Of a stretch of DNA of 64,000 nucleotides, positions 4,251 through 38,141 are shown piece by piece. The stretch is taken from NCBI RefSeq assembly GCF_964194155.1, contig NC_135909.1, forward strand, positions 62,001-126,000, in the 5' to 3' direction. The position numbers and the translations under genes were made by a program. Position 1 is the first letter of the stretch. Each line of letters starts with the position of its first letter. Below the pieces are notes generated by a model. It did no database searches and was not told the origin of the DNA. It was given only the letters and a program-made list of their open reading frames with translations. The DNA is from Cetorhinus maximus. Lineage: Eukaryota.

Positions 4251-4721
4251 CCAATCAGCTAATGCAGCAGACTCAGGAATGTTAACTTTGCCCAGTTAGC
4301 AGCACCCACTGGAGTTGGAAAGTTGTGGGTTCAAGCCCCCACTTCCAGACCAGAGATCATAATCCAGGTTAATCAACAGTGCAGCACCTGGTCAGAACTG
4401 CACTGACCGAGACTGTCAGAGAAAATTCCTCTTGCTGAAAAGTTCAACTGTCTGCCTGGCCTGGTGGGCCAGGAAAATGTCAAAGATCCTGTAGCATTAT
4501 TTATAAAAGGAGCAGGGAGTTTTAGTGCCTAGCTGACAATCCTTCCTTAACTAACTGAAGGCATTAAAAACACACCAACTTGCATTTATACAGCACCTTA
4601 TCACATCTCCAAAGTGCTTCATGTACAACAAATTATTCCTATGGTGCATTGACTGACTGTGACAATTATTTTGTGCAGATATTAACTGCTTTTCCCCCCC
4701 ACCGAGTGGTAGCCTACATAC

Positions 4722-4931
4722 CTTGCCCCAGTCCGGTTTAATTTCAACAGTTTTGCAGCCATCCTCGTAGGCTTTCTGATATTCCCCCTTTTTGGCATAG
4801 GCAGCAGACCTGTTACTGTAAAGTACATGGTTCTTGGGGTCTAGCTTAATGGCTTCACTGTAACATATGATGGCATCAGCTATCTTCCCAGCACTGAGGG
4901 CTTGATTGCCCTTCTCTTTAAGTTCATTCAC
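4722..4931 (-). CDS. STIP1: STIP1 coding exon 2 (210 nt), TPR1 domain
   Basis: [70 protein letters not shown]; T-rich acceptor AG 4933-4932, donor GTatgt 4721-4720. Confidence 0.97.
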
Positions 4932-7632
4932 CTTAAAAGAAGAGAAAAAAAAAAGGTTACTATACTCGAAGATCCTCATCTCATCTTGTTCGGCTGCACA
5001 AGTCGACAATCTATTACTATTCAACCATACTGATCAATTCCTTAGACATTGAAAGCTCTGGACCAGGATCTACACAGAGCTGTTATAACCATTTTTTTGT
5101 ATTACCAGTTCTTCCTTTCATGAGAGATATTCTATCACGACTTTAATCAGTAAACTATTTGGAAAATGCGAGTGCAGCTTACCGAAACCTGGTTCTGGGA
5201 CCCCATGCTGTGTTATATGTATGACCCACAGCTGAACAGCAGTAAACAAAGTGCAACCACTGACAGGTTCTGAACCCATTCTAAACTACATCGCAGCAAC
5301 TCCTCTGTTCAACATTCCCCAAACACCATGGAGGAGTCAGGGAGTAAACTTCAAATGCAAACATTTTCCTGTCCCTATAACCTTGCTCACAGGCTGAGAT
5401 TACAGAACTATTGAATGTGCTGTTTTGAAGTCAACTCCTCTTCTGCCCAGGGGTAAACAAGTTCTCTTAGCAACTGCACTGTTACTGCTGAGTGGGAGAT
5501 TTAATGCAGGCAATTCAAATGTAGCTTCTGTACTCAGAACCATGACAACAAAGCCAAACTTTTCAAAAGGCACAAAATTTGTTACACTTATCTTAATCTA
5601 CTGCGTGTCCACTGTGTGCAATTTTGGTCTCCTTATTTAAAAAAAGACATAATTGCTTTAGAAGCAATTCAGAGAAGGTTCGGTGGACTCATTCCTGGGA
5701 TGGAGCGGTTGTTTTATGAAGGAAAATTGAGCAAGTTGGGCCTACGCCTATTGGAATTTAGAAGAATGAGAGCTGATCTTGTCAAAACATAAGATCCTGA
5801 GGGGACTGGATAGGGTGGATACCTGGAAGATGTTTCCTTCTGTGGGGAGACTAAAACTAGGGGACACAGTTTAAAAATAAGAGGTCTGTTTGTGACAGAG
5901 ATTAGGAGAATTTTTTTCTCCCAAAGGGTTGTTGGTGTGTGGAATTCTCTTCCCCTGAAAGAAGTGGAGGTTAGACAGATTTTTGTTAGGCAAGGGAGTC
6001 AAGGGTTATTTGAGGGGGGGGCAGGAAAATGGAGCTGAGACCACAACCAGATCAGCCATGATCTTAATGAATGGTACTGGCTCGAAGGGCCAAATGGCCT
6101 TACTCCCACTCCTATGCCAGGCTGCACTGCTTTTCTACGGTAGTCTAAACTTGTCTTTATTCCTGGCATTAGCAGGATAAACCATGCACCCAGTAGATTC
6201 AATCATCTAATTGATCGCTAGGATCAGCATTAGAACCCACCACTACTTATCAATACTCAGTTCGGACAGACCCTCGGATATCTGGCTCTGAATATGCATC
6301 TCGGTAAGGTCAATTGGATCATCAACAGATGAGCCAAAAACCTTTTGAACCTTTAAGAAAGTACTTCCCACTGACACTTTGAATTTGGTTCTGTGTAGTG
6401 CCTTCAATTAACTATTAAAGATTGACAAAGTGTTTTTAATTGTCATTTAATTAGATTTAGGTTTGGGAAAAAGTCTCTCAACAGTTTTCTATAAAAGTAA
6501 CTGTCTTGTTGGAGTCCAGTTAAATCCATCAGGTTATCAAGTGCAGACACTTCTGTCTGATATCCATTATTATATGCAGCACTCAGTCACCAGGCCACAC
6601 CATCCTTCAGTATTGTAAAGACATCACAAAGCTGGAACTTTTCTTTAGCTATCTACGATGTCAACAAACGACTGCTTTTTAACAATTGCACTTTGTGGCA
6701 CAATTCTGTACTCACCTCCAGGTACATAATGCTTTACTCTGACTGACTCTTGTTATCACACTTGATGAATTAATACTGATCAACGAGTAACAACAGCGAC
6801 AAATCTACATGACTTTTTAAAAGTAACTTTTGATAATCCCAGTGATCTTGAACAGCAAATGTGCCCCCCGGGTCACATTAACCTGTAGTGATGCTCAAAA
6901 CTGTCCATGGTGAGAGAAACACATTCAGTAAAACATACAGCTGAAATGATCTGGGGAGTTGGCAAATGCATGCTTCTTGTCCTGTCCTGTCCTGTCCAAA
7001 TACATGCAGGAAGACACTTTCTGCACAGAATTTGGAGGAAATCTGGGTGGCATGAAAACCTTTCTATGGAACAGGGGGTGGGGTCGGTAGAGGAAGGGAA
7101 GTAACTAGGGCTGTTTAGAGTAAAATCATCACCCAATTGAAGTGAACAGAAACACAGTAAAAGTTTGTTCCAGTATGGTCTGGAGTGCTTGTAATGAATG
7201 AATTTGGAATTTCTTCCCTGTCAAAGTTCTCCCACTTCACCATCAGACACTGTCCCCTGACTGCGAAGGCAAGATGGTGTGGTTTGTGGAATGATCAGTA
7301 AGAGAGAGCTGTTCACCAACACACTTGCCCAATGTGAACTATGCAGCAACAAAGTACCAGAGATGGCCAAAAGCTGGAGTTGGAATACAATCCCACTTCA
7401 ACTAGCAAAGACGGTTCTCCCGTCCCCACTAACAGATGAAAGATAAGGATCCCTCTACTCTCCAAACAATCCAACCTCAAAGCACCATTCAGTACACATC
7501 TGAATATTCTAATATCCATGTCATGAACCCTGAAAACAGTTTTAATGCCAATTTTGCAGCGCCAATCTGCAACAGTACATTTGCCTGTGGAGAGAAATTT
7601 GGACCCGAAGTCTCCCAAAGTTTAAAGATCGT

Positions 7633-11178: not shown

Positions 11179-11689
11179 TGCACATACATTACACACATGT
11201 ACAAAAATGATACATATTATATAAAATATATACACAGGTATTATAAATATACAAAAATGAATATATATATATATATAGACATATATACACAAATTACAAA
11301 TAAATATACCAAGTGATATTTATACACACAAAAAAAAAGTTTGCAAACCCCATTGCAAATAAGGAGGGAAAGACACGTTTCATTTTGAAGGGAGATTATA
11401 AATATTGGGCATGGGACAGAATTAAAGGTTCTCGGATTTTTCCCTTGGTAAATGGGAATGTGAGGAGTTGGAATGGAAGACGTTCAATGAAGGTTAGTTT
11501 TCATTTTGAAAGATTATTTTATCTCCTTAAACGTGATTGAGCTCCACCCCATTGGCCTGTGCAACATCAACCGCAGCTCACCCTGGCCTCATGCTGCCCT
11601 GGGTTATGATGGGGGGGGGGGGGGGCGGTTGATCCCCGTCTTATGTTGGACCAGGGACTGTTTTTTTTGGGTGTTTTCAGCTCTCTTAC

Positions 11690-11704
11690 CTTCGCCTGCT
11701 CCAT
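11690..11704 (-). CDS. STIP1: STIP1 coding exon 1 (MEQAK)
   Basis: gtgATGGAGCAGGCGAAG|GTAAGA; phase-0 join to exon 2 gives [13 protein letters not shown] (mammalian STIP1 starts [11 protein letters not shown]); lies in a CpG island. Confidence 0.9.
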
Positions 11705-11722
11705 CACCAGTTCACCATGCGC

Positions 11723-11742
11723 CTTCTCGAACTTACCAGAAC
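11723..11742. promoter_or_regulatory. Heat-shock element (HSF site)
   Basis: cTTCtcGAActTACcaGAAc: four alternating nGAAn units with one mismatch, about 20 nt upstream of the STIP1 ATG; STIP1 is an established HSF1 target. Confidence 0.8.
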
Positions 11743-11749
11743 TCACGCC

Positions 11750-12430
11750 GGAAATCCCACCCCCGCCTCCCGTTCCCATTGGCCCGCTGGCCCATCGCTC
11801 ACCGTTCGGAAATCCCGCCCCATCCGCTCCCACTGGCCGACGACCCCGGCTTCCCTCCGTTCCGATAGGTCCACCCGATGATCAATCGTTGTGCGGAAAT
11901 CCCCGCCCCCCCCACCGCCGCCTCAGGCACACCCTATTGGTCGCGGCGCCACGGCTTTTCCACTCCCATTGGTCTTCTTGATAATCAATCACCATCCTCT
12001 GTGGCGGGGGGGGGGGGGTGTGTGAACTTCGCCAACTGTCCGTTCCCATTGGCCGCCGCTCCAGGTTTATTCAGTTTCGATTGGTCCGTCTGATAATCAA
12101 TCATTCCCCGGAGATCCCGCCTCACCAGCTCGGTCCCATTGGCCGCCCGCCGTTCCCGAGAGCTTCCAGTTCCGACTGGTCCATTCGTTAATCAATCACA
12201 GTCCAGCGGCCGGATAGGAAATCCCGCCTATCAATCGCCGCTCATTGGCCAAAGCGGCGTGGAGGGTGGGGGGGGTGGGCGGGTTGCTCTGTCAATCAGG
12301 AAGCGGCGAATCAGAGGCTCCAGCCGCCTCGGCACGCAGAGTCCGACCCGCCTCCGCCAAAGGAGGCCTGTGATTGGTTAATATCCTCCGTCGCTACCTT
12401 TCGACTGGCTCCGCCGGCCGTCAATCATGT
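11750..12430 (-). promoter_or_regulatory. STIP1 CpG-island promoter with multiple CCAAT boxes, GC boxes and PBX-type motifs
   Basis: High GC/CpG; ATTGG at 11778, 11936, 11968, 12048, 12080, 12138, 12244, 12373 (all the same orientation); repeated (A/G)TCAATC and GGAAATCCC motifs. Confidence 0.85.
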
Positions 12431-13639
12431 CAGTGACTGACAGGTTTTTCAACCTGGGGGAACATTCTGGAGCTTTGCTGAAGGAGTCAATTCACTTTTA
12501 GAGTCGTTATAAATAAATTGCAACGCCCAATTGCAATTCCAATTATGTACCTGGCTGGGCGTGCAGCTTCAGAAATGCAAAAATATGCAAAAATAAATAA
12601 ATATGCAAATGTGTGCAAAAAATAAAATCAGAATTTTGGACCTTTTTTATGGTTTTAATTCACTTCAGGCTTTCTTTCCTCCCCACCTTTGCTTCCCTCC
12701 CCAAGCCTTTGGCAATTTACTTTCATATGGCTGCCACGTCGAGTAAAGAATTTGTATTTTCCAATTCTCACAGCCCAGCAAGTGCTGAATGAAGTGCAGC
12801 CACTGTTGTTGAGTAGGCGCACAGCAAGATCCCACAAGCAACAATGTACAAAATCATGTGTGGAGTCATATACTTCTGTGGCAAAATGTACAACCTCAAC
12901 TCACTTAAATTGCATCATTTACAACCACAGACACGCAAGAAATACCAAGTCAAATAACATGCAACAATGCTTTTTCAGTGTAATTGTTATCACCAGCTCA
13001 ATTTCTTTTGCAAGGATAAGCTATTGATTTTTCTATGCAGTGAGTTATTGTCTGAAATACATTGCCTGAAAGGGTGGAAAAAGATTCAATAATAACTTTC
13101 AAAAGGGAATTAGATAAATACTTGGGGGGAGGCGGAATTTACAGGGCAGTGGCGGGAAGCACAAGGGAGTGAGACTATTGAAATAACTCTTTTTAAAAAG
13201 CTGGTAGAGGCGCAATGGGCTGAATGGCCTCCTGTGTGCTGCTGATTGCAAAAGAGAAAAATAAACACAGAATTAAGCTACTCGGCCTAACCAGTCTGTG
13301 CAACTGTTGATATTCCAAGTGAGTTTTCTCCCAGCCTACCTAACTTATCTCAGTTTTATTTTCTATTCCCTTTTCTCTCCTGTACTCGTCCAATTTCCTT
13401 TTGAAAGCATCTAAGCATTCACCTCAACCACTTTCTGTGGTAGCGAGTCCCACATTTTAGCCAGTCTAAGTAAATAAATTTTTCCTGATTTCCCCTTTGG
13501 ATTTATTTATGGCACCTAGTTTTGGATTCTCCCACATTCTCCCTATTCCCTCTACTGCCACATTATGAGTACTAACAGATCTCCTCTTCTCTTTTCTTAA
13601 CATCTCAATTTAAAAATTTTAATCCATGAATTCAGAGAC

Positions 13640-15877: not shown

Positions 15878-16110
15878 AGAACTACAAATCCCATAAACCC
15901 TCGCTCCGGGTCACCGCCCCCACTGCTCCCTGATTGGTCCGCCTTTGGGGGTGGCGGTCATGTGCCCCGGAAGAACTAGCCTCGTCAGTGAGGATTAAGC
16001 GAGAGAGAGAAAAAAAAAATCAAAATATTGCAACGGGTTCGACGGTGCAGCCACCTGCTCGTAGGTGCAAAACAAAAAAAAGGCGATAACGGTGTTTCGG
16101 GAGCGGAGCG
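15878..16110 (+). promoter_or_regulatory. MACROD1 promoter / 5' UTR (CpG island to about 16420)
   Basis: ACTACAAATCCCA (ZNF143/THAP11-type) at 15881-15893, ATTGG at 15933, GC boxes, CCGGAAG (ETS/GABP) at 15967-15973, half-CRE CGTCA near 15983. Confidence 0.75.
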
Positions 16111-16405
16111 ATGGAGAAACTCGTCGTCGGGGTCGGCCGGAGCCGACTTCATTGGAACGGGCGGCCGTTGGTGTGGGCGCGCGGCGCGGCTTCGAACGCG
16201 TTCCGAGTCCAACGGTCGCCACGGCCGGCGGCCGGCGGCGGCTTGGCGCCTGCGCGCTGGCTGTTGCCCGCCGGCCGCGGGCCCCGCCGCCCTCACTCGC
16301 TGCCGTCGAGCGCAGCGGCCGCTGGCGTCTCCACGTCGCTCGGCCGCATGTCCGCCAAAGGGTTTACCCCCGCTCACCTTGACGCCGACTGGAAAGTGGC
16401 GAAAA
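16111..16405 (+). CDS. MACROD1: ADP-ribose glycohydrolase MACROD1, coding exon 1 (mitochondrial presequence-like N-terminus)
   Basis: gcgATGG start; Arg-rich, acid-poor leader ending ...MSAKGFTPAHLDADWKVAK (cf. MACROD1 DWKEAK); phase-1 donor A|GTAAGT at 16406. Confidence 0.85.
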
Positions 16406-18453
16406 GTAAGTATTTCACCGCCACTCCACACAAAGCTCCAAGTTTACCAAAATATATTTCACTCATGTTGCTGGAAATAAAAGTTGGGTCAAAGGGGCGG
16501 GTTTTAAGGAGTGTCTTAAAGGAGAAGAGCAGCTGAGGGAGGGAATTCCACAGATTAAGGTTTAGACACCTGAAGGCAATGGTGAGGCCTCGGGCATCAA
16601 GTGATGTGCAAGAGGTGACTATTATTGGTCATCATTTCCGATCAATATTTGTTAATCAGTTTTACTATAAACACTAGCACCATCTGGTCACAGGCTTTTA
16701 AACTCTGTGGAATGAACCTTTGCCCATGACCACCTTTTGCATATTTACAAACCACTTGCATTCATCAAGTCAACATGGGCATTATTATTTACTACTTTAC
16801 CATAAAACAGCAAAACCCGAGAGGAACTGTTAAAACGAAGGCACGTTGTAGCAGAGGTAGGCCATTCAGCCCCTTCGAGCCTGCTCTCCCATTCAGTAAG
16901 ATCATGGCTGCTTTGATTGGCGTCTCAACACCCACTTTCCTGTCTGCCCCCCCCCCAAAACCCTTGAGTCCCATGCTTTATTTAGATAGTCAAGCCTAAC
17001 TCTGCTTTGAATAAATTCAATGACCTTGCCTCCAATGCTTTTGGGGGAAAGGAATTCCATATACTGATGACTCAGAGAAAAAAAAATCCTCATCTCCTTA
17101 AATCTCCCTCTTCTTCTCAATCTCCTTCTTAATCTCCCTCTTATTCTTAAACTGTGTCCCCCTAGTCCTAGTCCATCCCCTACAAATGGAACCATCCTCC
17201 CTATCTACCCTATCAAGCCCCCTCTCAGTATCTTACATGTTTCAATAAGATCATTTCTCATTCTTCTAAACTCCAATGGTTATCGACTCAACCTGTTCAA
17301 CCTTTCTTCATAAATTAAGCCCTCATCCCAGGAATGAGTTGAGTCGACCTTCTCCGAACTCCTCTGAACCAAATTATATCTTTTTTTTCAAATAAGGGGA
17401 CCAAAACTGTACACAATATTCCAGATGTGGAATATAAAATAAAATAAGAGTTAAAATTACTGTACACTCCTTAATCTCTTGACCTCCTCCCTGTCTTATT
17501 CAGGGACTTTTTATAGTTTATGGAATTCAAAATAAAATCGACAACAGGCAGGTAAGCAGAACACTCACTTTGCCTCACCTCCTCTCCTCACACATGCAGT
17601 TTTTGAGTTTAAAAAGAAACAATAAATTTCATCTAAATAAAGCTTTAGAAATCCACCATATTCTCCAAAATTATTGGAACAAAAGTTACTGAATATCCAC
17701 GGCTAGAAGCTAAAGAAAAATATTTCACCACTACAGTTGTCTGGTACTTCGCCATCATGGGAATTTATGTACACTGCAAACGCTCAGGACGTAACATTCA
17801 AAACATTGTAAGGTCACAGCTATGGGTAAAAAGTATCAAGTCCAATTGCAGGGATTTGGAAGAGTTTTTCAAGTGAAAACTTTAATGAAAGTATAAAAAT
17901 ACAGTAATTTATCAACTTATTGTGCGACATGTCATTTGTTTTGGTCCCCATTTGCACTTTAAGTTAACTAAGTTTGTGGGGAGAGGGGGCTGCAAGAGAC
18001 TCAGGTGCTGTGACTCGGGGAAGAAAAATTTGTCCAGGGTTCCTGGGACTGACTGCTGACTGTACATGTGTGTGGGCATGAGGGGTGTCGACTCTGCCTT
18101 AACATTCAGGAGTGCAGTAACAGAGAGGCCACTGGACTAATGATCTGTGAGTTCAAATCCCATCATGGCAGTTGGGGATGGAATTTAAATTTAGTCTTGG
18201 AATAAATTCTGGAATAAAGCTAGTATCATCAATGGTAACCGTAAAACTACTGGATTGTCTTAAACACCTATCTAGTTCACTAATGTCCTTTAGAGAAGAA
18301 AATCTGACATCCTTGAGCCAACATGCCTCTGCAGAAAGAGGTACCGTAAATATTGGTCAAGACTTGCAATAGGCTGTTTATGGTTGGGTCCAGGAGGAAA
18401 TTCAGGGCCATAAATACAGAACCTTTTTTGTTTTTGTTTTTTTTTCCAAAAAG

Positions 18454-18555
18454 AGCACTTGGAGAAAATTGATCGCACAGAAAGACGAAGTTACTACAAA
18501 GCTGAAAGATTTGTTATCCTCGATGAGATTCAAACATGGAAAGACTTTGCTGAAG
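18454..18555 (+). CDS. MACROD1: MACROD1 coding exon 2 (102 nt)
   Basis: (K)HLEKIDRTERRSYYKAERFVILDEIQTWKDFAE; long T tract plus AG 18452-18453, donor G|GTGAGT; phase 1-1. Confidence 0.9.
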
Positions 18556-21500
18556 GTGAGTCAGAGATTGTTATACGTAAAAGGACAAACTAAGCTCGAA
18601 GGAGATAGGTCCATCAAGAAGTTAGTACTCTGAAGGATGAAACGTTTCCTATGTTCCCTTTCAGCCAGGAGAAGAGTGGAGGGAGGGTGTGGTCTACAAT
18701 TCTACTGAAGATTTACAAGGATGTTGCCAGCAATGTGTGGGTGTACATATCAGGAAAGGATGGACAGGCTGGGTCTTCTCTCTAAAGAAAAGAAGGCTGA
18801 GGGTGACCTAATAGAGGTCTTTAAAATTCTGAAAGATTTTGATAGAGTGGATACAGAGAGAATGTATCCTCTTGTGATGAAGAGCAGAACTAGAGGCCAC
18901 CAATATAAAATAGTTACTGAGAAATCCAACAGAGAATTCAGGAGAAACTCCTTTACACAGAATGCTGAGAATGTGGAACTCCTACTACAGTTGCTGAGGC
19001 AAATGGTATAGATGTATTTAAGGGGCTAGACAAGTATATGAGGGAGAAGGGAATAGAGGGTTACGACAATATATTTAGATGAGGAAAGATTGGAGGAGAC
19101 TGGACTCGAGCATAAACACTGGCAAGGACTGAATGGCCCGTTTCTGTGCTATATATCTTATGTAATCTGATGTACAATTCCTCTCAGTGTCCCTGAATCA
19201 GGAAACAGTCAAATAAAAACAGAAATGCTGGAAATACTCAACAGGTCAGTGTTTAGAGAAACAGAGTTAACATTTCCAATGACCTTCCTGGAAGAAGTTA
19301 AGAGATTTAACAGTCTGTAAACAAGTACAGTCATGGAAAGAAGATGTTAGGGGGGGCAGGGGGGAGGCAGTGTTAGGGGTGCTGGGTATGGTGGGAACAA
19401 TCAGCCAAGGTTTCCAATCTCAATTATTAGCTGGTGATCTTTGCTGGAAGTCTGCATGTGTGAAAGTTTGATGAACAGAAGATTGGACCCGGCTCTGGCA
19501 GTGTCTAGATCGCCGGATACATTTTTTCCCTCCTCGGTGCACAAAAGAAGAGTGGCCATTTCATTGAGGTACTGTAACCTTTTCCCAGTGCCGTTCTGAA
19601 TCCTCACAAGAGATGCAAAAAAGTTAGTGGAGCGGATAGAATAAAACTAATTGTAATCAATGAACTTCACAATTCAGAGCCCATCTAAGCCTTACAAAAT
19701 GCATGTGTTTGAGAAGAAATGTGTATAGATATGATTAAATTATTGCAAAACATCAACTTATCCAGTTCTGACAGCTCAGTAGGAAATTAGTCCCACTTCC
19801 TTCAAATACATGTTATAGACACACGAGGGATGACAGAATAATAAATGTACTTAATCTCTGCCAAAGGCAGTATAAATATTTTACACCAATATTATTCCTA
19901 CAAGAGCTTGAAAGCTGCAGAACCAGTAACCGACAAAACTCAGCGAGTCATATATTTCTCAAAAAACAACCTGTCCCGTCAGTATACAAAACATTGTGTG
20001 CTCTATATTATCCATCCATTAGCCAGAGGCACTCTGTAAAGATTGTATTTTTCAGCATGTGGGAATGCGATGAAAAGACCACTGAATGCCATTGAAATGA
20101 AGTACCAGTCCCTGACACACATTCTCCGTTGTAGGCTAATCATAGTACATGGCTCGTATTGATTTCAAGGTGTTCCAGTTTATCATTGTGATGTGAAGTC
20201 ACCCGAAGCAGTTTTAGGTCAGTGATATGAGCCCATTTCCAGGAAATGATTATACGTTGCCTCGGTTGACGCATTTACTGTGTCAACCAAGGCTCAGTCG
20301 TCGCACCTTCAGCTCACAAGGCTGTAAAAGGTCCCATGGCACTATTTTGAAGAAGAATGGGAATTTTCTCCAGTGTTCGGGCCAATATTTATTCCGTGAT
20401 CGGCATCATATAAACCGATTATCCAGGTCATTATCACATTGCTGTCGTTTGAAACTGTGTGTGAACTAACTGCCCCATTTCCTGCATTACAATGGTGACT
20501 ACACTTCAGAAAGTACTGAATTGGCTGTAAAATGCTTTGGTGTTCGTGAAAGGCACTATATAAATGCAAGTCTTTCAATTCTTTTTTTGGCTTCACACCA
20601 GCTACAGTATAACTACAATTGGCATTAAAATAAAGTTTAAAAACTCTCCAGGTGGTTTGAATTTTCACACACATATTGCATGTTCACTCAGATTGCTTTG
20701 CCTGCTTCTCATCACTGCAGGGCAGGAACCTGTCTCAGACTCATATGTATAATAAAACCAGGTCAGTACAGTTATTGCTCCATAGCTAAGTCTGATCGTC
20801 TTATTCTGGGAAATCTATTAATTTTAACTCCTACTTTATAAACTCTGCTTTATTAAGGAATTGCTTTTTATGCAAGCTCATGTAGAGAATAAATGCCAAA
20901 ATGGACTGTTTGGGCTGAATGACCCATTTCTGTGTTATAACTTCTATGTAATTTTAAGCAATACTTTCAGGGATAGCAATGGTTTATCATCGAGTTTTTT
21001 TAAAAATTCATTTACAGGATGTGGGTATTGCTGGCCTGCCTGGCATTTACTGCCCCAGAGAAGTTGGTGGTCAGCTGCCTTCTTGAAAACAACTGAATGA
21101 TTTGCTAGGGCAGTTAAGAGTCAATCTTTTCCTTCGGCAACACCTTCCAAACCCACGACCTCTACCACTTAGAAGGACAAGGGCAGCAGACACATAGGAA
21201 CACTGCCACTTGCAAGTTCCCCTCCAAGCCACACACCATCCTGACTTGGAAATATATCGGCCGTTCCTTCACCGCCACAGGGTCAAAATCCTGGAACTCC
21301 CTTCCTAACAGCACTGTGGGTGCACCTGTACCACATGGACTGCAGCGGCTCAAGAAGGCAGCTCACCACCACCTTCAAGGGGCAATTATGGATGGACAAT
21401 AAAAGCTGGCCTAGCCAGCGACACCCACATCCCATAAATGATAAAAAAACACATTGCTGTGGGTCTGGAGTCACATATAGGCCAGAGCGGATTAAGGACA

Positions 21501-21975
21501 GCAGATTTGCTTCTCCAAAGGGCATTAGTGAGCTAGATAGGTTTTTAAAACTACCCATCAGTTCCACAATCACCATTACTAATACTAGCTTTTTATTCCA
21601 GATTTATTAAATTTCCCAGCTGTTGTGATGGGATTTGAACTCAAGTCTCTGAATTATTAGTTCAGGCCTCTGGATTACTAGGGCAGTAACTTGAACAATA
21701 TACTACCACTATCATTAAGTAAAAGTGGCTACTTAGAAACTAAATCTACTTTAATTTCTTTTTCCAGTCCCGTTATTGCTGCTCTGGTTAGAAAAACAAA
21801 CACAGCTCATTATTTTACACGTAGCAAAGTCAATTTTTTTGGTTTGTGTAGAAAGTAAACTTGGAAAATTCCTGTGTCAATACATTATAGAATTGTTCCA
21901 GAGTACCTTCATTCTGATTAACAAAACAATGAGTAAATGCCCAAAAATCCTTTTGAAGATCTGTTTCCCTGGAGC

Positions 21976-22551
21976 TTAAGGATTTTTTCTGTGTTTAATA
22001 GAAAACAGCTTTTTAACCATAGTTTTTTCACTTCCGTGGTTTGCACTCGACACATCCTTCTCTAGGCTTTGAGCTTGTTGAGTGGAGATTAATCCGCTTT
22101 TGTAACATTCCAGTTCTTCCTGTGCAACAAGCAACTGAGCCTTCAGTTTGTTGCGTTCTTGCAATACATCCCTCAGTTCCTGGAGTGTGAAACGTGGTCG
22201 ATTTGGGTCGTTAACATCCACCACTAGTTTGTCCGGCCCAGTGTTCTGCTGCTTCTCTGAATCGCTTCTCGCCTCTTGGAGTTCTCTCCGAAGTCTTTCT
22301 GTTTCCGTCCTCAGGTTGTCGCGTTCAATTTTCAGCGTATCTGCTGTAAGGTTCTGCTTGTCCACCAGAGACTCAAATATTTCTAGAACTCTGATTATCT
22401 TGTACTGCAGCTCAGAGACTGTGTGGTTGTCTTCCAAGCTGCTGAGTTTGAATAAATCACGGCCAATGATGTAAGACATATCGTAGACATCTTCAGCTGT
22501 GAGCTCGAATGGATCTTTGTCAAATGCTGATGTAGGATTCAATTCCTCCAT
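21976..22551 (-). CDS. RILPL2: RILP-like protein 2, intronless ORF (191 aa) nested antisense in MACROD1 intron 2
   Basis: RH1 motif PFELTAEDVYDMSYIIGRDL...IIRVLEIFESLV, RH2 motif DPNRPRFTLQELRDVLQERNKLKAQLLVAQEELECYKSGL and C-terminal EKTMVKKLF all match RILPL2; no stops or frameshifts. Confidence 0.93.
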   Translation of the reverse strand: MEELNPTSAFDKDPFELTAEDVYDMSYIIGRDLFKLSSLEDNHTVSELQYKIIRVLEIFESLVDKQNLTADTLKIERDNLRTETERLRRELQEARSDSEKQQNTGPDKLVVDVNDPNRPRFTLQELRDVLQERNKLKAQLLVAQEELECYKSGLISTQQAQSLEKDVSSANHGSEKTMVKKLFSIKHRKNP

Positions 22552-22699
22552 CGATTTTCCTTCCAGTGTCTCCTCACTCTCCTGCCAGACTAAAACTGAA
22601 AATAAAACCAGCTGATCATCTAAAATGAAGAACTGTTGTTTTACAAATGGCTTACTTCAGAAAAGCTTCACTCCATAATATTCATTATAACATAGGCAG

Positions 22700-22846
22700 A
22701 TTTCCGTTGGAGTACTATAACCGTTTTCCACACTTCCTCTTTGTGTACCCAAGTTTCACATGACAGGAAGCAGGAGGGTTGTTTGATTGACAGTTTTTTT
22801 AAACCAACCCAGGGTTTTGTTTGGCAATCCCCAGTTGCTTAGCAAC
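22700..22846 (-). promoter_or_regulatory. Putative promoter of nested RILPL2: RFX X-box, PBX/MEIS-PKNOX decamer, E-box, ETS and MYB-like motifs
   Basis: GTTGCTTAGCAAC 22834-22846; TGATTGACAG 22784-22793; TCACATGAC near 22756; CAGGAAG near 22764; CCGTTG near 22704. Confidence 0.6.
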
Positions 22847-25469
22847 ACCCACAGAGATGTAGAATTTGTGCTTGTGTTTTTGTTCTGCTTGCAAAAGAAC
22901 TTTTCTGATTCTCTAATAGGCTGCCTGAAGTCCTAGAATCAGCATTTTTCCTCATTTTCTTTCAAATTTTATTTTAATTTTCTTTTCATAAACGCTGCAA
23001 TCCAATAATGCTGAATTAGAGCCATAGAGTCATTTACAGCTCAGAAGGAGGCCATTTGTTCCATTGGCAACTTATGTTGGGCACCAGTTTCAAGAGTGCC
23101 AACTGCATGCCAGCATCTCAGCCAAGCCATCCTGGTCCTGATAGGCTATTTCACCATTGGGGTCATCACCCAGTATATATGTACACTTTCCAGCAGAGAC
23201 TCCTGGATAGAGATTGAAAGTGGGAGATCTGGGTGATTCACTCCACTTCCTGATTGCTGAGGGCAAGTGTCATGCTCCTGCTGACATCCTGGCTGAGGGC
23301 AACTAAGTCAGCACAGAACAGTGATTGAATATGTAGCTTGCTGGTTCTGTGTGACTCAGTGCAATGCCATGGACTGCATTTACCCATGAGGTTATTGAGG
23401 GGGAAGAGTTTGGTTTTTCAACTTTATTTTTAAACATTCATGTTTTTTCTCTTATTTCTTTTTTAAAGATATTCTGTCCCATATCAAAGCTGTTTTAATT
23501 TTTGAAATAAGCTGTTTCATGCTACCCATTCCTCTTGAGACTGCTGCTTTAGTGGGAGAATTGAGGCAGTTATAACTATTGGCAAGACAGCCTCACCCTA
23601 CATTATTTCATTTAAATACATGTGCCAGAGCCTCAGCTTTGCTCCTTTCCTAGCTGGGAGCCATTCCATTATCTGCAGCCTTACTGCGCACACATCCTGC
23701 ATGTCACAATCTCTGTAATCGCATGATTGTTACATGCAGGATATGGTCCATGCAATGGACATTTCTTCTCAGCTATACCCAACATCTTCCTAGCAGATTG
23801 CCTCCCTAATGCATTAACTTAGTATATTTATCATTAAGTATCATTGGAAATGTGTATTTTTAAAGTTGGGGAATTGATTTCTAAACCTAGTCAGCCTCTC
23901 CAGCCTGAGTCAGACTCAGCTAAATTGACAAGCAACAAACCTTGAAATGAGCAGGCAAGGGAATGCTGTAAACCTGACTGGAGCCTATTTCAATTGACAA
24001 TTTTGTTCAAAATATTATCACAGGAAGTTACCCTGAAATGCTTTAAAAAATGGGTCTGCGGATAAATACATCAGTGTGTTATGCGCTGGACTGATGTGTA
24101 TAGGTTTGAGTGCTTACTTTTTCATAACCAGCTCTAGGATCTTGGCTATACCATTGGAGGAGGTGAAGAGCAAGGTTCAATTAAAAAAAGGAAGTATTTT
24201 GCCATAGAATATGACGTCGAATATATCGGACAGAAACAGGCCATTCAGCTCAACAGGTCAATGCCAGTGTTTATGCTGCACATTAGTCTTCTCCCACCAT
24301 ACTTTATCTCGCCCTATCATCATACTGCCCTATTTCATTTCCCTTGTGTAATTATTTAGATTCCTCTTAACTACATCTATGCTATTAATTTCAACCACTC
24401 CTTGTGGTAGCGAGTTCCATATTCTCATCGTTCCCTATAAAAAGAAGTCTCTTCTGAATTCGCTATTGGATTTATTAGTGATTGTCTTATATTTATGGCC
24501 CCTAGTTTTGGTCTCCCACACAAATGGAAACATCTTCTCCATGGTTGCTAAGCATTGACCCCTGCTAAGAAGCTCCTTGACTTTGTGGCCACCACCTAAG
24601 TCCATTGATCCGACGACATTAGGCACTGCTGTACCTTGTTTTGAAGTCTAATCTCAGTTTGATTGTTGGGCTCACAATGCACGGGTAAAATAGAATCTGA
24701 CCCTGTTTGTACCCTTGAATCACAGACAGAGCGAGAGAGGACCCATGCTCCAATTATCACCTCTTTAGTATTGCATTTCTGTAGCACCTAGCACAACCTC
24801 AGGATGCTCCAAAATGCTTCACAGCCAATCAAGTCCTTTTGAAGTGTAGGCACTGTTGTAAAGTAGGAGGAAACATCCTCTGGCAAAATAAGGCAAAGAT
24901 AGCAGTTGCCAATTCACCCATCACACTTCCAAGTTGTCATCTGCCCACATCTTTCATTGAATAGCTGAAGACTGATGGTGTGAGGTCAGAGAGTTTTAAT
25001 TCCTTTGTCATATCAGTTCTGCCATTTTTGCATTGAGCAACCAGAGCAAAGTGCGAAGGCCCATCATGTAGGACGAATCAAATTTGACAGAATTAGAAGA
25101 CTATGCAAATGAGTAAAATAAAAAGGGAAAACTGCAAATGCTGGAAATATGCAGTGGGTCAGTCAGCACCTGTAAAGACTAAAAACAGTGTCTGGTATTT
25201 TAGATTTGATTGTAGAAGGAAGTAAAGAGTCATGCAATTTTAAGATTCTAGGGAAGAAACAAACAACAGACTTTTGAGTTTTGGTTTCAACACTGTAAGG
25301 ATGCAGAGTGGAGAAGACAATCTGCCGATGCTGGTTTAAAAATAGGTCAGAGAAAATGCCCAAGTTTCTGTTCCCTGTGGTAGTTCACTCCCATGCAAGG
25401 GGTTAAGAAGGACCAAGCCACTTCCCAGATGAGTGGCAAGAGGCGAATCCCATCGGACACAGATGACAA

Positions 25470-27488
25470 AGGGAGGACGAGGCAACCATGGCTGACAAGG
25501 GAAGTCAGGGACAGCATAAAAGCTAAAGAGAAAACATACAATGCGGTGAAGAGCTGTGGGAAACCAGGGGATTGGGAAGCCTACAAAGACCAACAGAGGA
25601 CAACTAAAAAAGAAGTAAGGAGGGAGAAGATTAAATATGAGGGTAAACTAGCCAGTAATATAAAAGAAGATTGCAAGAGTTTTTTTTAGATATATAAAGG
25701 GTAAGAGAGAGGCAAAAGTGGACATTGGGCCGCTGGAAAATGATGCTGGAGAAGTAGTAGTGGGGAACAAAGAAATGGCGGAGGAACTGAATCTGTACTT
25801 TGCGTCAGTCTTCAAAGTGGAAGACACGAGTGACATCCCCAAAGTTCAAGAGAGTCGGGGGGCAGAGGTGAGTACGGTGGCCATTACCAAGGAGAAGGTG
25901 CTAGGAAAACTGAAAGGTCTGAAGGTGGATAAATCACCTGGACCAGATAGATTACACCCCAGAGTTCTGAAGGAGATAGCTGAAGAGATAGTGGAGGCGT
26001 TAGTGGTGACCTTTCAGGAATCACTCGTGTCAGGGAGGGTCCCAGAGGACTGGAAAATCGCTAATGTAACCCCCCTGTTTAAGAAGGAAGTGAGGCAAAA
26101 GACGGGAAATTACAGGCCGATTAGCCTGACGTCGGTCGTTGGTAAGATTTTAGAGTCCATTATTAAGGATGAGATTTCAGAATACTTGGAAGTGCATGGT
26201 AAAATCGGGCAAAGTCAGCATGGTTTCATCAAGGGGAGGTCATGCCTGATAAATCTGTTAGAATTCTTTGAGGAGGTAACGAGTAGGTTAGACAAAGGAG
26301 AGCCAATGGATGTTATCTACTTGGACTTCCAGAAGGCCTTTGACAAGGTGCCACACAGGAGGCTGCTCAGTAAGATAAGAGCCCATGGTGTTAGAAGCAA
26401 GGTACTAGCATGGATAGAAGATTGGCTGTCTGGCAGGAGGCAGAGAGTGGGGATAAGGGGGTCCTTCTCAGGATGGAGGCCGGTGACTAGTGGAGTTCCG
26501 CAGGGGTCAGTGTTGGGACCACAACTTTTCACTTTATACATTAATGATCTAGATGAAGGAACTGAGGGCATCCTGGCTAAGTTTGCAGATGATACAAAGA
26601 TAGGTGGAGGTACAGGTAGTATTGAGGAGGCGGGGAGGCTGCAGAAGGATTTGGACAGGTTAGGAGAAAGGGCAAAGAAGTGGCAGATGGAATACAACGT
26701 GGGGAAGTGTGAGGTCATGCACTTTGGTAGGAAGAATAGAGGCATAGACTATTTTCTAAATGGGGAGAGAATTCAGAAATCTGGAGTGCAAAGGGACTTG
26801 GGAGTCCTAGTCCAGGATTCTCTTAAGGCTAACTTGCAGGTTGAGTCAGTAGTTAGTAAGGCAAATGCAATGTTGGCATTTATTTCGAGAGGACTAGAAT
26901 ATAAAAGCAGGGATGTGCTGCTGAGGCTTTATAAGGCTCTGGTCAGACCACATTTAGAATATTGTGAGCAATTTTGGGCCCCCATATCTCAGGAAGGATG
27001 TGCTGGCCCTGGAGAGGGTCCAGAGGAGGTTCACGAGAACGATCCCAGGAATGAAAGGCTTAACATATGAGGAACGTTTGAGGACTCTGGGTCTATACTC
27101 GATGGAGTTTAGAAGGATGAGGGAAGGTCGGATTGAAACTTACAGAATACTGAAAGGCCTGGATAGAGTGGACGTGGGGAAGATGTTTCCATTAGTAGGA
27201 GAGACTAGGACCCGAGGGCACAGCCTCAGAGTAAAGGGAAGACCTTTTTGGAAGAGAGATGAGGAGAAACTTCTTTAGCCAGAGAGTGGTGAATCTATGG
27301 AATTCATTGGCCAGGTCATTGAGTGTATTTAAGACGGAGATAGATAGGTTCTTGATTGGTAAGGGGATCAAAGGTTACGGGGAGAAGGCGAGAGAATGGG
27401 GTTGAGAAACTTATCAGCCATGATTGAATGGCGGAGCAGATTTGATGGGCCGATTGGCCTAATTTCTGCTCCTATGTCTTATGGTCTT
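25470..27488 (+). mobile_element. 5'-truncated CR1-clade LINE nested in the Tx1 element; RT domain ORF 25718-27070
   Basis: NYRPISLTS, YLDFQKAFD, SGVPQGSVLGP, FADD; tail CCTATGTCTTATGGTCTT; direct repeat ATGACAA at 25463-25469 and 27489-27495; +1 frameshifts in homopolymers near 25685 and 26980. Confidence 0.95.
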
Positions 27489-37900: not shown

Positions 37901-38024
37901 GAGTGGCGCCTGTGTCCACTGTTTGTACCTAGAGTCTTTTACTCAAAAATCAGTTCTGATATAGCTTTGTGATGGTTGTTCTGTAATGCAATTATTTAAT
38001 TTTGTCTACTATTTATTTTTGCAG

Positions 38025-38141
38025 AAGAGAAGTTTAAACAACCGTTAACTCACTATGAGAAGGACGACGTTATGAATCAAAAGCTTTCACTCTTGCAGGA
38101 GGACATCACCAAGCTGGAAATTGATGCAATCGTCAATGCAG
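38025..38141 (+). CDS. MACROD1: MACROD1 coding exon 3 (117 nt), start of macrodomain
   Basis: (E)EKFKQPLTHYEKDDVMNQKLSLLQEDITKLEIDAIVNA; acceptor ttttgCAG 38022-38024, donor G|GTTGGT; the DITKLEIDAIVNA signature is diagnostic of MacroD-type domains. Confidence 0.94.

Follow-up and report, generated by a model that had tools for sequence, protein, structure and literature searches.

The stretch of DNA analysed here, referred to as the window, is 64,000 nucleotides of the Cetorhinus maximus genome (contig NC_135909.1, positions 62,001 to 126,000, forward strand), and its subject is an intronless copy of RILPL2. The coding sequence is a single exon of 191 amino acids on the minus strand at 21976-22551, free of stops throughout. 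Pfam places an RH1 domain at residues 21-87 (E 2e-10) and a RILP domain at residues 122-181 (E 3e-21), both above the curated cut-offs, and the top PDB matches are RILPL2 chains. The RH1 domain (PF09744), in mammals the myosin-Va-binding module, occupies 22291-22491 on the minus strand and aligns to 4kp3_C. The RH2/RILP domain, at 22009-22203 on the same strand, includes the X-cap arginines Arg118 and Arg120 and also Lys137, which correspond to human R130, R132 and K149. Both domains fall within a protein in the ~190-210 residue range that is nearer to RILPL2 than to RILPL1 or RILP; a genome search with the window protein found RILPL1-like and RILP-like loci elsewhere (33-57%). The protein is identical to record P0001 at 190 of 191 residues and has 99% identity to a Carcharodon record. 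The open reading frame (ORF) list, Pfam and PDB thereby bear out the original prediction of a full-length RILPL2 ORF with RH1 and RH2 and no disablements. A window-type protein is already held in RefSeq, plainly named 'RILP-like protein 2'.

The RILPL2 ORF lies inside another gene, MACROD1. Coding exons of MACROD1 were located on the plus strand by tblastn with P0121 at 16111-16404 (exon 1), 18450-18554 (exon 2) and 38024-38140 (exon 3). Exons 1 and 3 are identical to a Cetorhinus record, and one RNA contig (run X3) joins 16403 to 18454, splicing exon 1 to exon 2. Since exons 2 and 3 stand on the plus strand either side of it, the RILPL2 ORF is antisense within MACROD1 intron 2, where it had been predicted to be.

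The coding introns of RILPL2 were taken from two vertebrate loci in metagenome contigs, the teleost-like L040 and the bird-like L041, out of seven loci recovered by the scan; there was no chondrichthyan locus among the seven. Exon 1 of L040 has 91% identity to a teleost RILPL2. One intron of this locus follows exon 1 (phase 0), and two more, both in phase 2, interrupt the Ser after 'YK' and the Leu within the 'KL' motif. In L041 exons 2 and 3 are visible, with the same boundaries. On the minus strand of the window these sites correspond to a phase 0 position after Gln102 (22245-22246), a phase 2 position in Ser152 (22096-22097) and a phase 2 position in Leu182 (22006-22007). The first is matched by an intron in L040, L041 and the remnant of a second RILPL2 on contig C12, described below; the second by donors in L040 and L041 and by the acceptor of an alternative last exon at the remnant; and the third by donors in all three. 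The window ORF runs uninterrupted across all three conserved sites, each intron being precisely absent. The gene is therefore intronless as predicted, with 3 of the 3 bony-vertebrate coding introns missing. By eye no poly-A tract or target-site duplication was seen around the ORF, which agrees with the prediction, although no dedicated search was run; survival of either is not expected at the age proposed below.

A multi-exon parent had been suggested to lie in the RILPL1 block, and it is there, broken. Remnants of exon 1 and exon 3 lie at C12:124,298-124,317 kb, between KMT5A and RILPL1-TMED2, in the order SBNO1(-), KMT5A(+), remnant(-), RILPL1(-), TMED2(+). The KMT5A label is based on a Pfam SET domain and a PDB KMT5A match. 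SBNO1 is presumed from a sub-threshold Pfam match plus its sequence, and the RILPL1 and RILP labels are likewise our assumption, from position plus characteristic sequence features, the ESM Atlas giving RH1 only and no gene name for the RILPL1-like exon. In mammals SNRNP35 sits between RILPL1 and RILPL2, and the home of the parent was predicted to be next to both SNRNP35 and RILPL1. The remnant is indeed beside RILPL1, but no SNRNP35-like ORF was seen by eye in the ORF lists for C12:124,317,000-124,347,000, between RILPL1 and the remnant. Rilpl1 and Rilpl2 are reported to be neighbours in mouse and Xenopus too (PMC3571868).

The remnant has lost its ATG, a ~380-bp repeat splits its exon 1, and it carries TAG and TAA stops, a 16-base deletion and an exon 3 without an acceptor. 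Its exon 1 and exon 3 donors are at the conserved intron positions. Exon 2 did not outscore shuffled sequence, and 6297 of the 8100 bases in the interval searched are repeat-like. The search for exon 4 likewise gave nothing above the shuffles, or trivial scores only. In a tree from which Ascaphus was dropped through a pattern miss, the remnant groups with parent-type proteins with support of 100/99, on a branch of 0.5 compared to 0.04-0.12. Protein searches of the genome, which score best candidates only, used the copy and a parent-type protein as queries; besides the window they found only the RILPL1-like exons on C12, the RILP-like exons on C9 and the broken RILPL2 on C12. A DNA search of the genome found no second copy of the window gene. 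The copy on C32 and the parent remnant on C12 are unlinked, and the parent is pseudogenised in the same genome that carries the intact copy. A single exon of a dynein heavy chain (Pfam AAA_6, E 3e-21) stands alone at C12:124,325,726-124,326,067 (+), between the dead RILPL2 and RILPL1. No adjoining dynein exons were seen in the ORF lists and it is possibly a stray duplicated fragment.

Full-length proteins of the copy type are present in at least 22 named chondrichthyans, a chimaera among them, in the best 120 of 758 matches of a protein search and in further members taken from cluster look-ups. A lineage-specific retroposition had been predicted; the retroposition itself is supported, but the copy appears to be pan-chondrichthyan. 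Heterodontus, Heptranchias and Pristiophorus encode both this gene and a second, parent-type RILPL2, which is annotated. Two roles had been offered for the copy, extra paralogue or 'orphan' replacement. The first holds in these three sharks but not in the window genome, where the second is the case, the sole other RILPL2 found being the broken parent. The ray entries (P0013, P0248, P0249, P0246, P0011) comprise several isoforms or accessions of the copy with varying N-terminal extensions, a hint that 5' exons may have been gained in batoids.

As a proxy for synteny, the lengths of the contigs carrying RILPL2 and MACROD1 were compared, equal lengths being read as one shared contig. The copy type and MACROD1 share a contig in 12 of the 13 other species for which both are recorded, the sole exception being Rhincodon, in which the copy sits on a 5.9-kb scaffold. 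Near-consecutive accessions for the two genes are frequent (e.g. XP_067878002/003 and XP_038643472/473), and those of Callorhinchus are consecutive (RILPL2 XP_007909620, MACROD1 XP_007909621). The parent type is on contigs other than that of the copy in Heterodontus and Heptranchias. As a control, none of the four bony vertebrates found in both lists has RILPL2 and MACROD1 on the same contig.

The chimaera protein falls inside the copy clade, with support of 100/96, and of 97/94 for the core alone. Its placement outside both clades is rejected by an approximately unbiased (AU) test on the full length (p 0.007). The simplest reading of these sequences would be a duplication on the chondrichthyan stem; chimaeras and elasmobranchs split over 400 million years ago. 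On the species tree of the group, the simplest reading is also that the parent was lost at least three times, a loss that is demonstrated in the window genome only. Three sharks still encode the parent, so that it probably disappeared on several occasions, following a long coexistence. The losses likely include those from the chimaeras, the rays and the lamniform-orectolobiform-carcharhiniform lineage, on the basis of its absence from the protein matches in all but the window genome.

One residue sets the copy apart from every other RILPL2 row scored. Tyr50 (22402-22404, minus strand) is aligned to mouse Phe56, which enters the pocket of the myosin-Va tail. In the scored rows all 32 copy-type sequences have Tyr at this position, and all 5 parent-type and all 95 bony-vertebrate sequences have Phe (8 of 140 rows were unscored). 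Phe56 has been reported as a specificity residue among the myosin-Va contacts (PMC6831827). The Phe is thus absent from the copy, although its replacement is still aromatic. It is possible that the copy is a diverged paralogue with a role of its own, involving an altered myosin-V preference, and that the parent could be lost because RILPL1 stands in for it. The fixed change from Phe to Tyr, seen in 0 of 100 other rows, would fit such a history, as would the persistence of both genes in three sharks and the apparent partial redundancy of Rilpl1 and Rilpl2 in mouse cells (PMC3571868). Other residues speak against it. The hydrophobic patch has four of its six residues identical to mouse (V31, S35, G39 and L42) and the remaining two conservative (V59 and M62). 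The equivalents of human R130, R132 and K149, which are required for phospho-Rab8a binding (PMC7139218), do not vary among the rows, whether of the copy, the parent or bony vertebrates. All of the phospho-Rab contact residues, the X-cap arginines and the switch-1 lysine, are kept; each of the 33 copy-type sequences has RPRFT and this lysine. The copy also retains a C-terminal KKLF-type motif (33/33) that no parent-type protein has (0/5), and this suggests that the parent has been drifting even where it survives. A separate role for the copy is compatible with a retro origin, and we consider it rather unlikely. By analogy, the copy presumably works as a ciliary Rab-myosin adaptor, as mammalian RILPL2 does. 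The mammalian protein (PDB 4KP3, 6RIR, 7LWB) has the same layout of RH1 and RH2; the shark gene departs from it in its single coding exon, its location on another chromosome and its Tyr for Phe56.

None of the listed holders of this sequence is on record as RNA. Eleven were guessed to be RNA and four of these were mapped, from four studies and two related species. In all four a single contig covers the whole ORF, from ~21457 to 22641-22819, and none covers 23314-23983. This is consistent with an unspliced 5' leader at 22552-22819 on the minus strand, which has a weak collinear similarity to the DNA upstream of the parent. A distant or host promoter acting through a spliced leader was rejected, as the four long contigs end 16 or fewer bases from the last aligned base and there is no upstream joint among those listed. 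On the other side of the ORF, no contig listed bridges a repeat at 21160-21457, past which cover of similar depth resumes. Run X1 ends at 19638 and X8 at 19629, the depth of X3 falls nearby, and X2 continues to 18526, in MACROD1 exon 2. A long 3' untranslated region (UTR) with embedded repeats is therefore probable at 19630-21975 on the minus strand (the strand is not given by the contigs), with the main 3' end near 19630, and an unspliced transcript of ~3.2 kb is suggested. On these data, plus-strand intronic read-through of MACROD1 would be another possible source of the cover. The X1 and X2 contigs over MACROD1 exon 2 extend into intron 1 (17983-18555), and reflect either an extended antisense 3' UTR that reaches across the exon or pre-mRNA of the host gene.

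The ATTAAA predicted on the minus strand at 21755-21750 is present in the window, but it is probably not the main 3' end. Contigs of 4/4 runs cross it, and A21753C destroys the signal in those relatives.

Four coding differences are listed between the contigs of these relatives and the window, three of them synonymous and one Ile185Leu. There are 4 differences in 576 coding positions compared to 19 in 677 of the flanks (p 0.005 on listed sites), and all 18 gap letters in the X1 contig are outside the coding sequence. The synonymous differences (3 of the 4 listed), together with the open orthologues in at least 22 species, lend indirect support to purifying selection on the copy. That the gene is a young or non-functional processed pseudogene, still open by chance, is scarcely credible in light of these full-length orthologues, the chimaera included, of indels that spare the coding sequence, and of the fact that it is the parent that has decayed.

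An RFX X-box-like palindrome, a putative promoter element, is at 22834-22846 on the minus strand. It precedes the ATG by 282 bp and lies 15 bp past the point to which the longest-reaching contig extends. It was first spotted by eye, and the strict pattern follows the X-box consensus. No other strict site occurs in the window, where 0.19 matches are expected (6 of 100 shuffles were as high), or in 164 kb of the window contig. A twin is found at C12:124316926-124316938, ~260 bp before the start of the dead parent, as one of three strict sites in the 290 kb surrounding the parent; with flanks, the two boxes match at 15 of 17 bases. This near-identical twin suggests an inherited promoter. On balance we favour inheritance of the X-box from the parent, convergence or chance making up the rest. 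In mouse, RFX1 and RFX3 peaks are reported at -56 and -27 of Rilpl2 (PMC7498320), and there is an RFX2 ChIP-seq call with expression unchanged (PMC4498915). A degenerate X-box-like site lies at L040:452-464, 214 bp upstream of the teleost-like RILPL2 ATG; the pattern was loosened post hoc and this is a lead only. A CpG-island promoter for the copy was rejected, as GC is 0.38 and CpG o/e 0.28 at 22501-23000. A wide non-coding local alignment found a repeat only (score 39, with 43 of 300 shuffles as high) and was also discarded.

The promoter bears on how the copy arose. A DNA-level duplication could have carried the complete gene, with its promoter and introns, into MACROD1, where the three introns were later lost, for instance through recombination with a cDNA of the gene. 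Copy and parent have the X-box in common and, weakly, the leader, and the position of the box beyond the contig ends is what such a duplication would give. A parental promoter, carried via mRNA initiated upstream, was inherited by only ~3% of expressed human and mouse retrocopies (PMC4772013). However, two rare events would be needed, all three introns are cleanly absent, and no similarity to the parent locus was found further out. Upstream of the X-box the score was 42 compared to a shuffle mean of 36 and maximum of 48, and the proximal 3' UTR also gave nothing significant, though age could have erased such similarity. A DNA-level duplication is therefore considered unlikely, somewhat more so than a separate role for the copy.

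Our preferred interpretation, which we hold to be quite probable, is that the intact intronless RILPL2 in MACROD1 intron 2 was retroposed before chimaeras, sharks and rays diverged and is now probably doing the job of the broken parent, as an orphan retrogene. A parent transcript begun upstream of the normal promoter would have been reverse-transcribed and inserted antisense into MACROD1 along with its RFX X-box, so that the copy could be expressed like the parent from the outset. The two genes would have coexisted for very long, the C-terminal motif of the parent drifting meanwhile, before the parent went in the three groups named above. The protein of the copy would act at cilia, with RH2 binding phospho-Rab8/10 and RH1 binding myosin-Va through a contact changed from Phe to Tyr. 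In its fullest form this becomes a slow-motion replacement over more than 400 million years, by a stem-chondrichthyan copy that was expression-equivalent at birth through its captured X-box. Both genes would be kept in hornsharks, sevengill sharks and sawsharks, the chimaeras, the rays and most galeomorphs would each have lost the parent, and the myosin-Va specificity residue would be fixedly changed. We put this complete version forward tentatively, as somewhat short of even.

Several observations weigh against retroposition and replacement. The intronless state is established for the window genome and, through collinear contigs, for two close relatives only. The absence of the parent from other species rests on the best 120 of the 758 protein matches. 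On the core alone, the AU test does not reject the chimaera outside both clades (p 0.20). That the runs are RNA is a guess, though X3 has the spliced MACROD1 contig, and their contigs carry no strand. If all five unlisted differences were coding, the p for coding sequence compared to flanks would be 0.18. Between box and start, the similarity to the parent is weak once the X-box is left out: its local score was reached by 20 of 300 shuffles (~0.07), and an anchored global score by 10 of 1000 shuffles (~0.01) and by 3 of 2506 unrelated tiles. In addition, the shared promoter would also fit a DNA-level duplication.

Orphan retrogenes, in which an intronless functional copy and a pseudogenised multi-exon parent likewise occur in one genome, are an established class (Ciomborowska et al. 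2013, PMC3548309; Carelli et al. 2016, PMC4772013). The human orphans described mostly lost the parent almost at once, CHMP1B and TRMT12 being the exceptions (PMC3548309), whereas copy and parent coexist here in three shark orders. The CHMP1B retrogene of placental mammals is a further likeness, an ancestral retrocopy with a parent kept in some lineages and independently lost in others; the RILPL2 copy differs in its much greater age and in its antisense position inside the intron of a host gene. CpG-island promoters drive nine of ten mammalian orphans, while the shark copy has no CpG island and has a candidate inherited X-box. In the promoter-inheriting retrocopies described (PMC4772013), DNA upstream of the start of the copy likewise aligns to the parent locus, but these have dS of 0.08-0.39, whereas the similarity for RILPL2 lies close to the limit of detection, with a single transcription factor motif as its anchor. 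No published account of a RILPL2 retrogene in sharks was found in the top 15-20 entries of literature listings, and 'RILPL2' is absent from the main text of a 2026 preprint on vertebrate retrocopies, the supplements of which could list the copy.

The cartilaginous fishes offer a natural time series of gene replacement, with species that have parent and copy, species that have the copy and a readable dead parent, as in the window genome, and species that apparently have the copy alone. If the X-box was inherited, it would explain how a retrocopy could take over from a cilia gene that is broadly required, with no need to evolve a promoter of its own. The cartilaginous-fish entries named 'RILP-like protein 2' are mostly the copy and not the syntenic orthologue of human RILPL2, and this is a hidden-paralogy trap for phylogenomics.

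The surroundings of the RILPL2 ORF contain other genes and elements. Neighbouring retroelements had been described as full of lesions, which is only partly so, since an RT-like frame of 431 amino acids at 25775-27070 (+), within the same MACROD1 intron, is open; we take it to be a LINE. MACROD1 exon 4 was not reached within 100 kb beyond the window. Just past the window, after MACROD1 exon 3, there is a FLRT-like single-exon ORF of 648 amino acids (C32:130,745-132,691, minus strand). With the RILPL2 ORF, this makes MACROD1 appear to be host to two nested antisense single-exon genes; human MACROD1 hosts a nested FLRT1. CpG-rich stretches are found at ~11500-12500 and ~16000-16500. A TPR-repeat exon at 4551-4979 on the minus strand, presumably of STIP1, is head-to-head with MACROD1.

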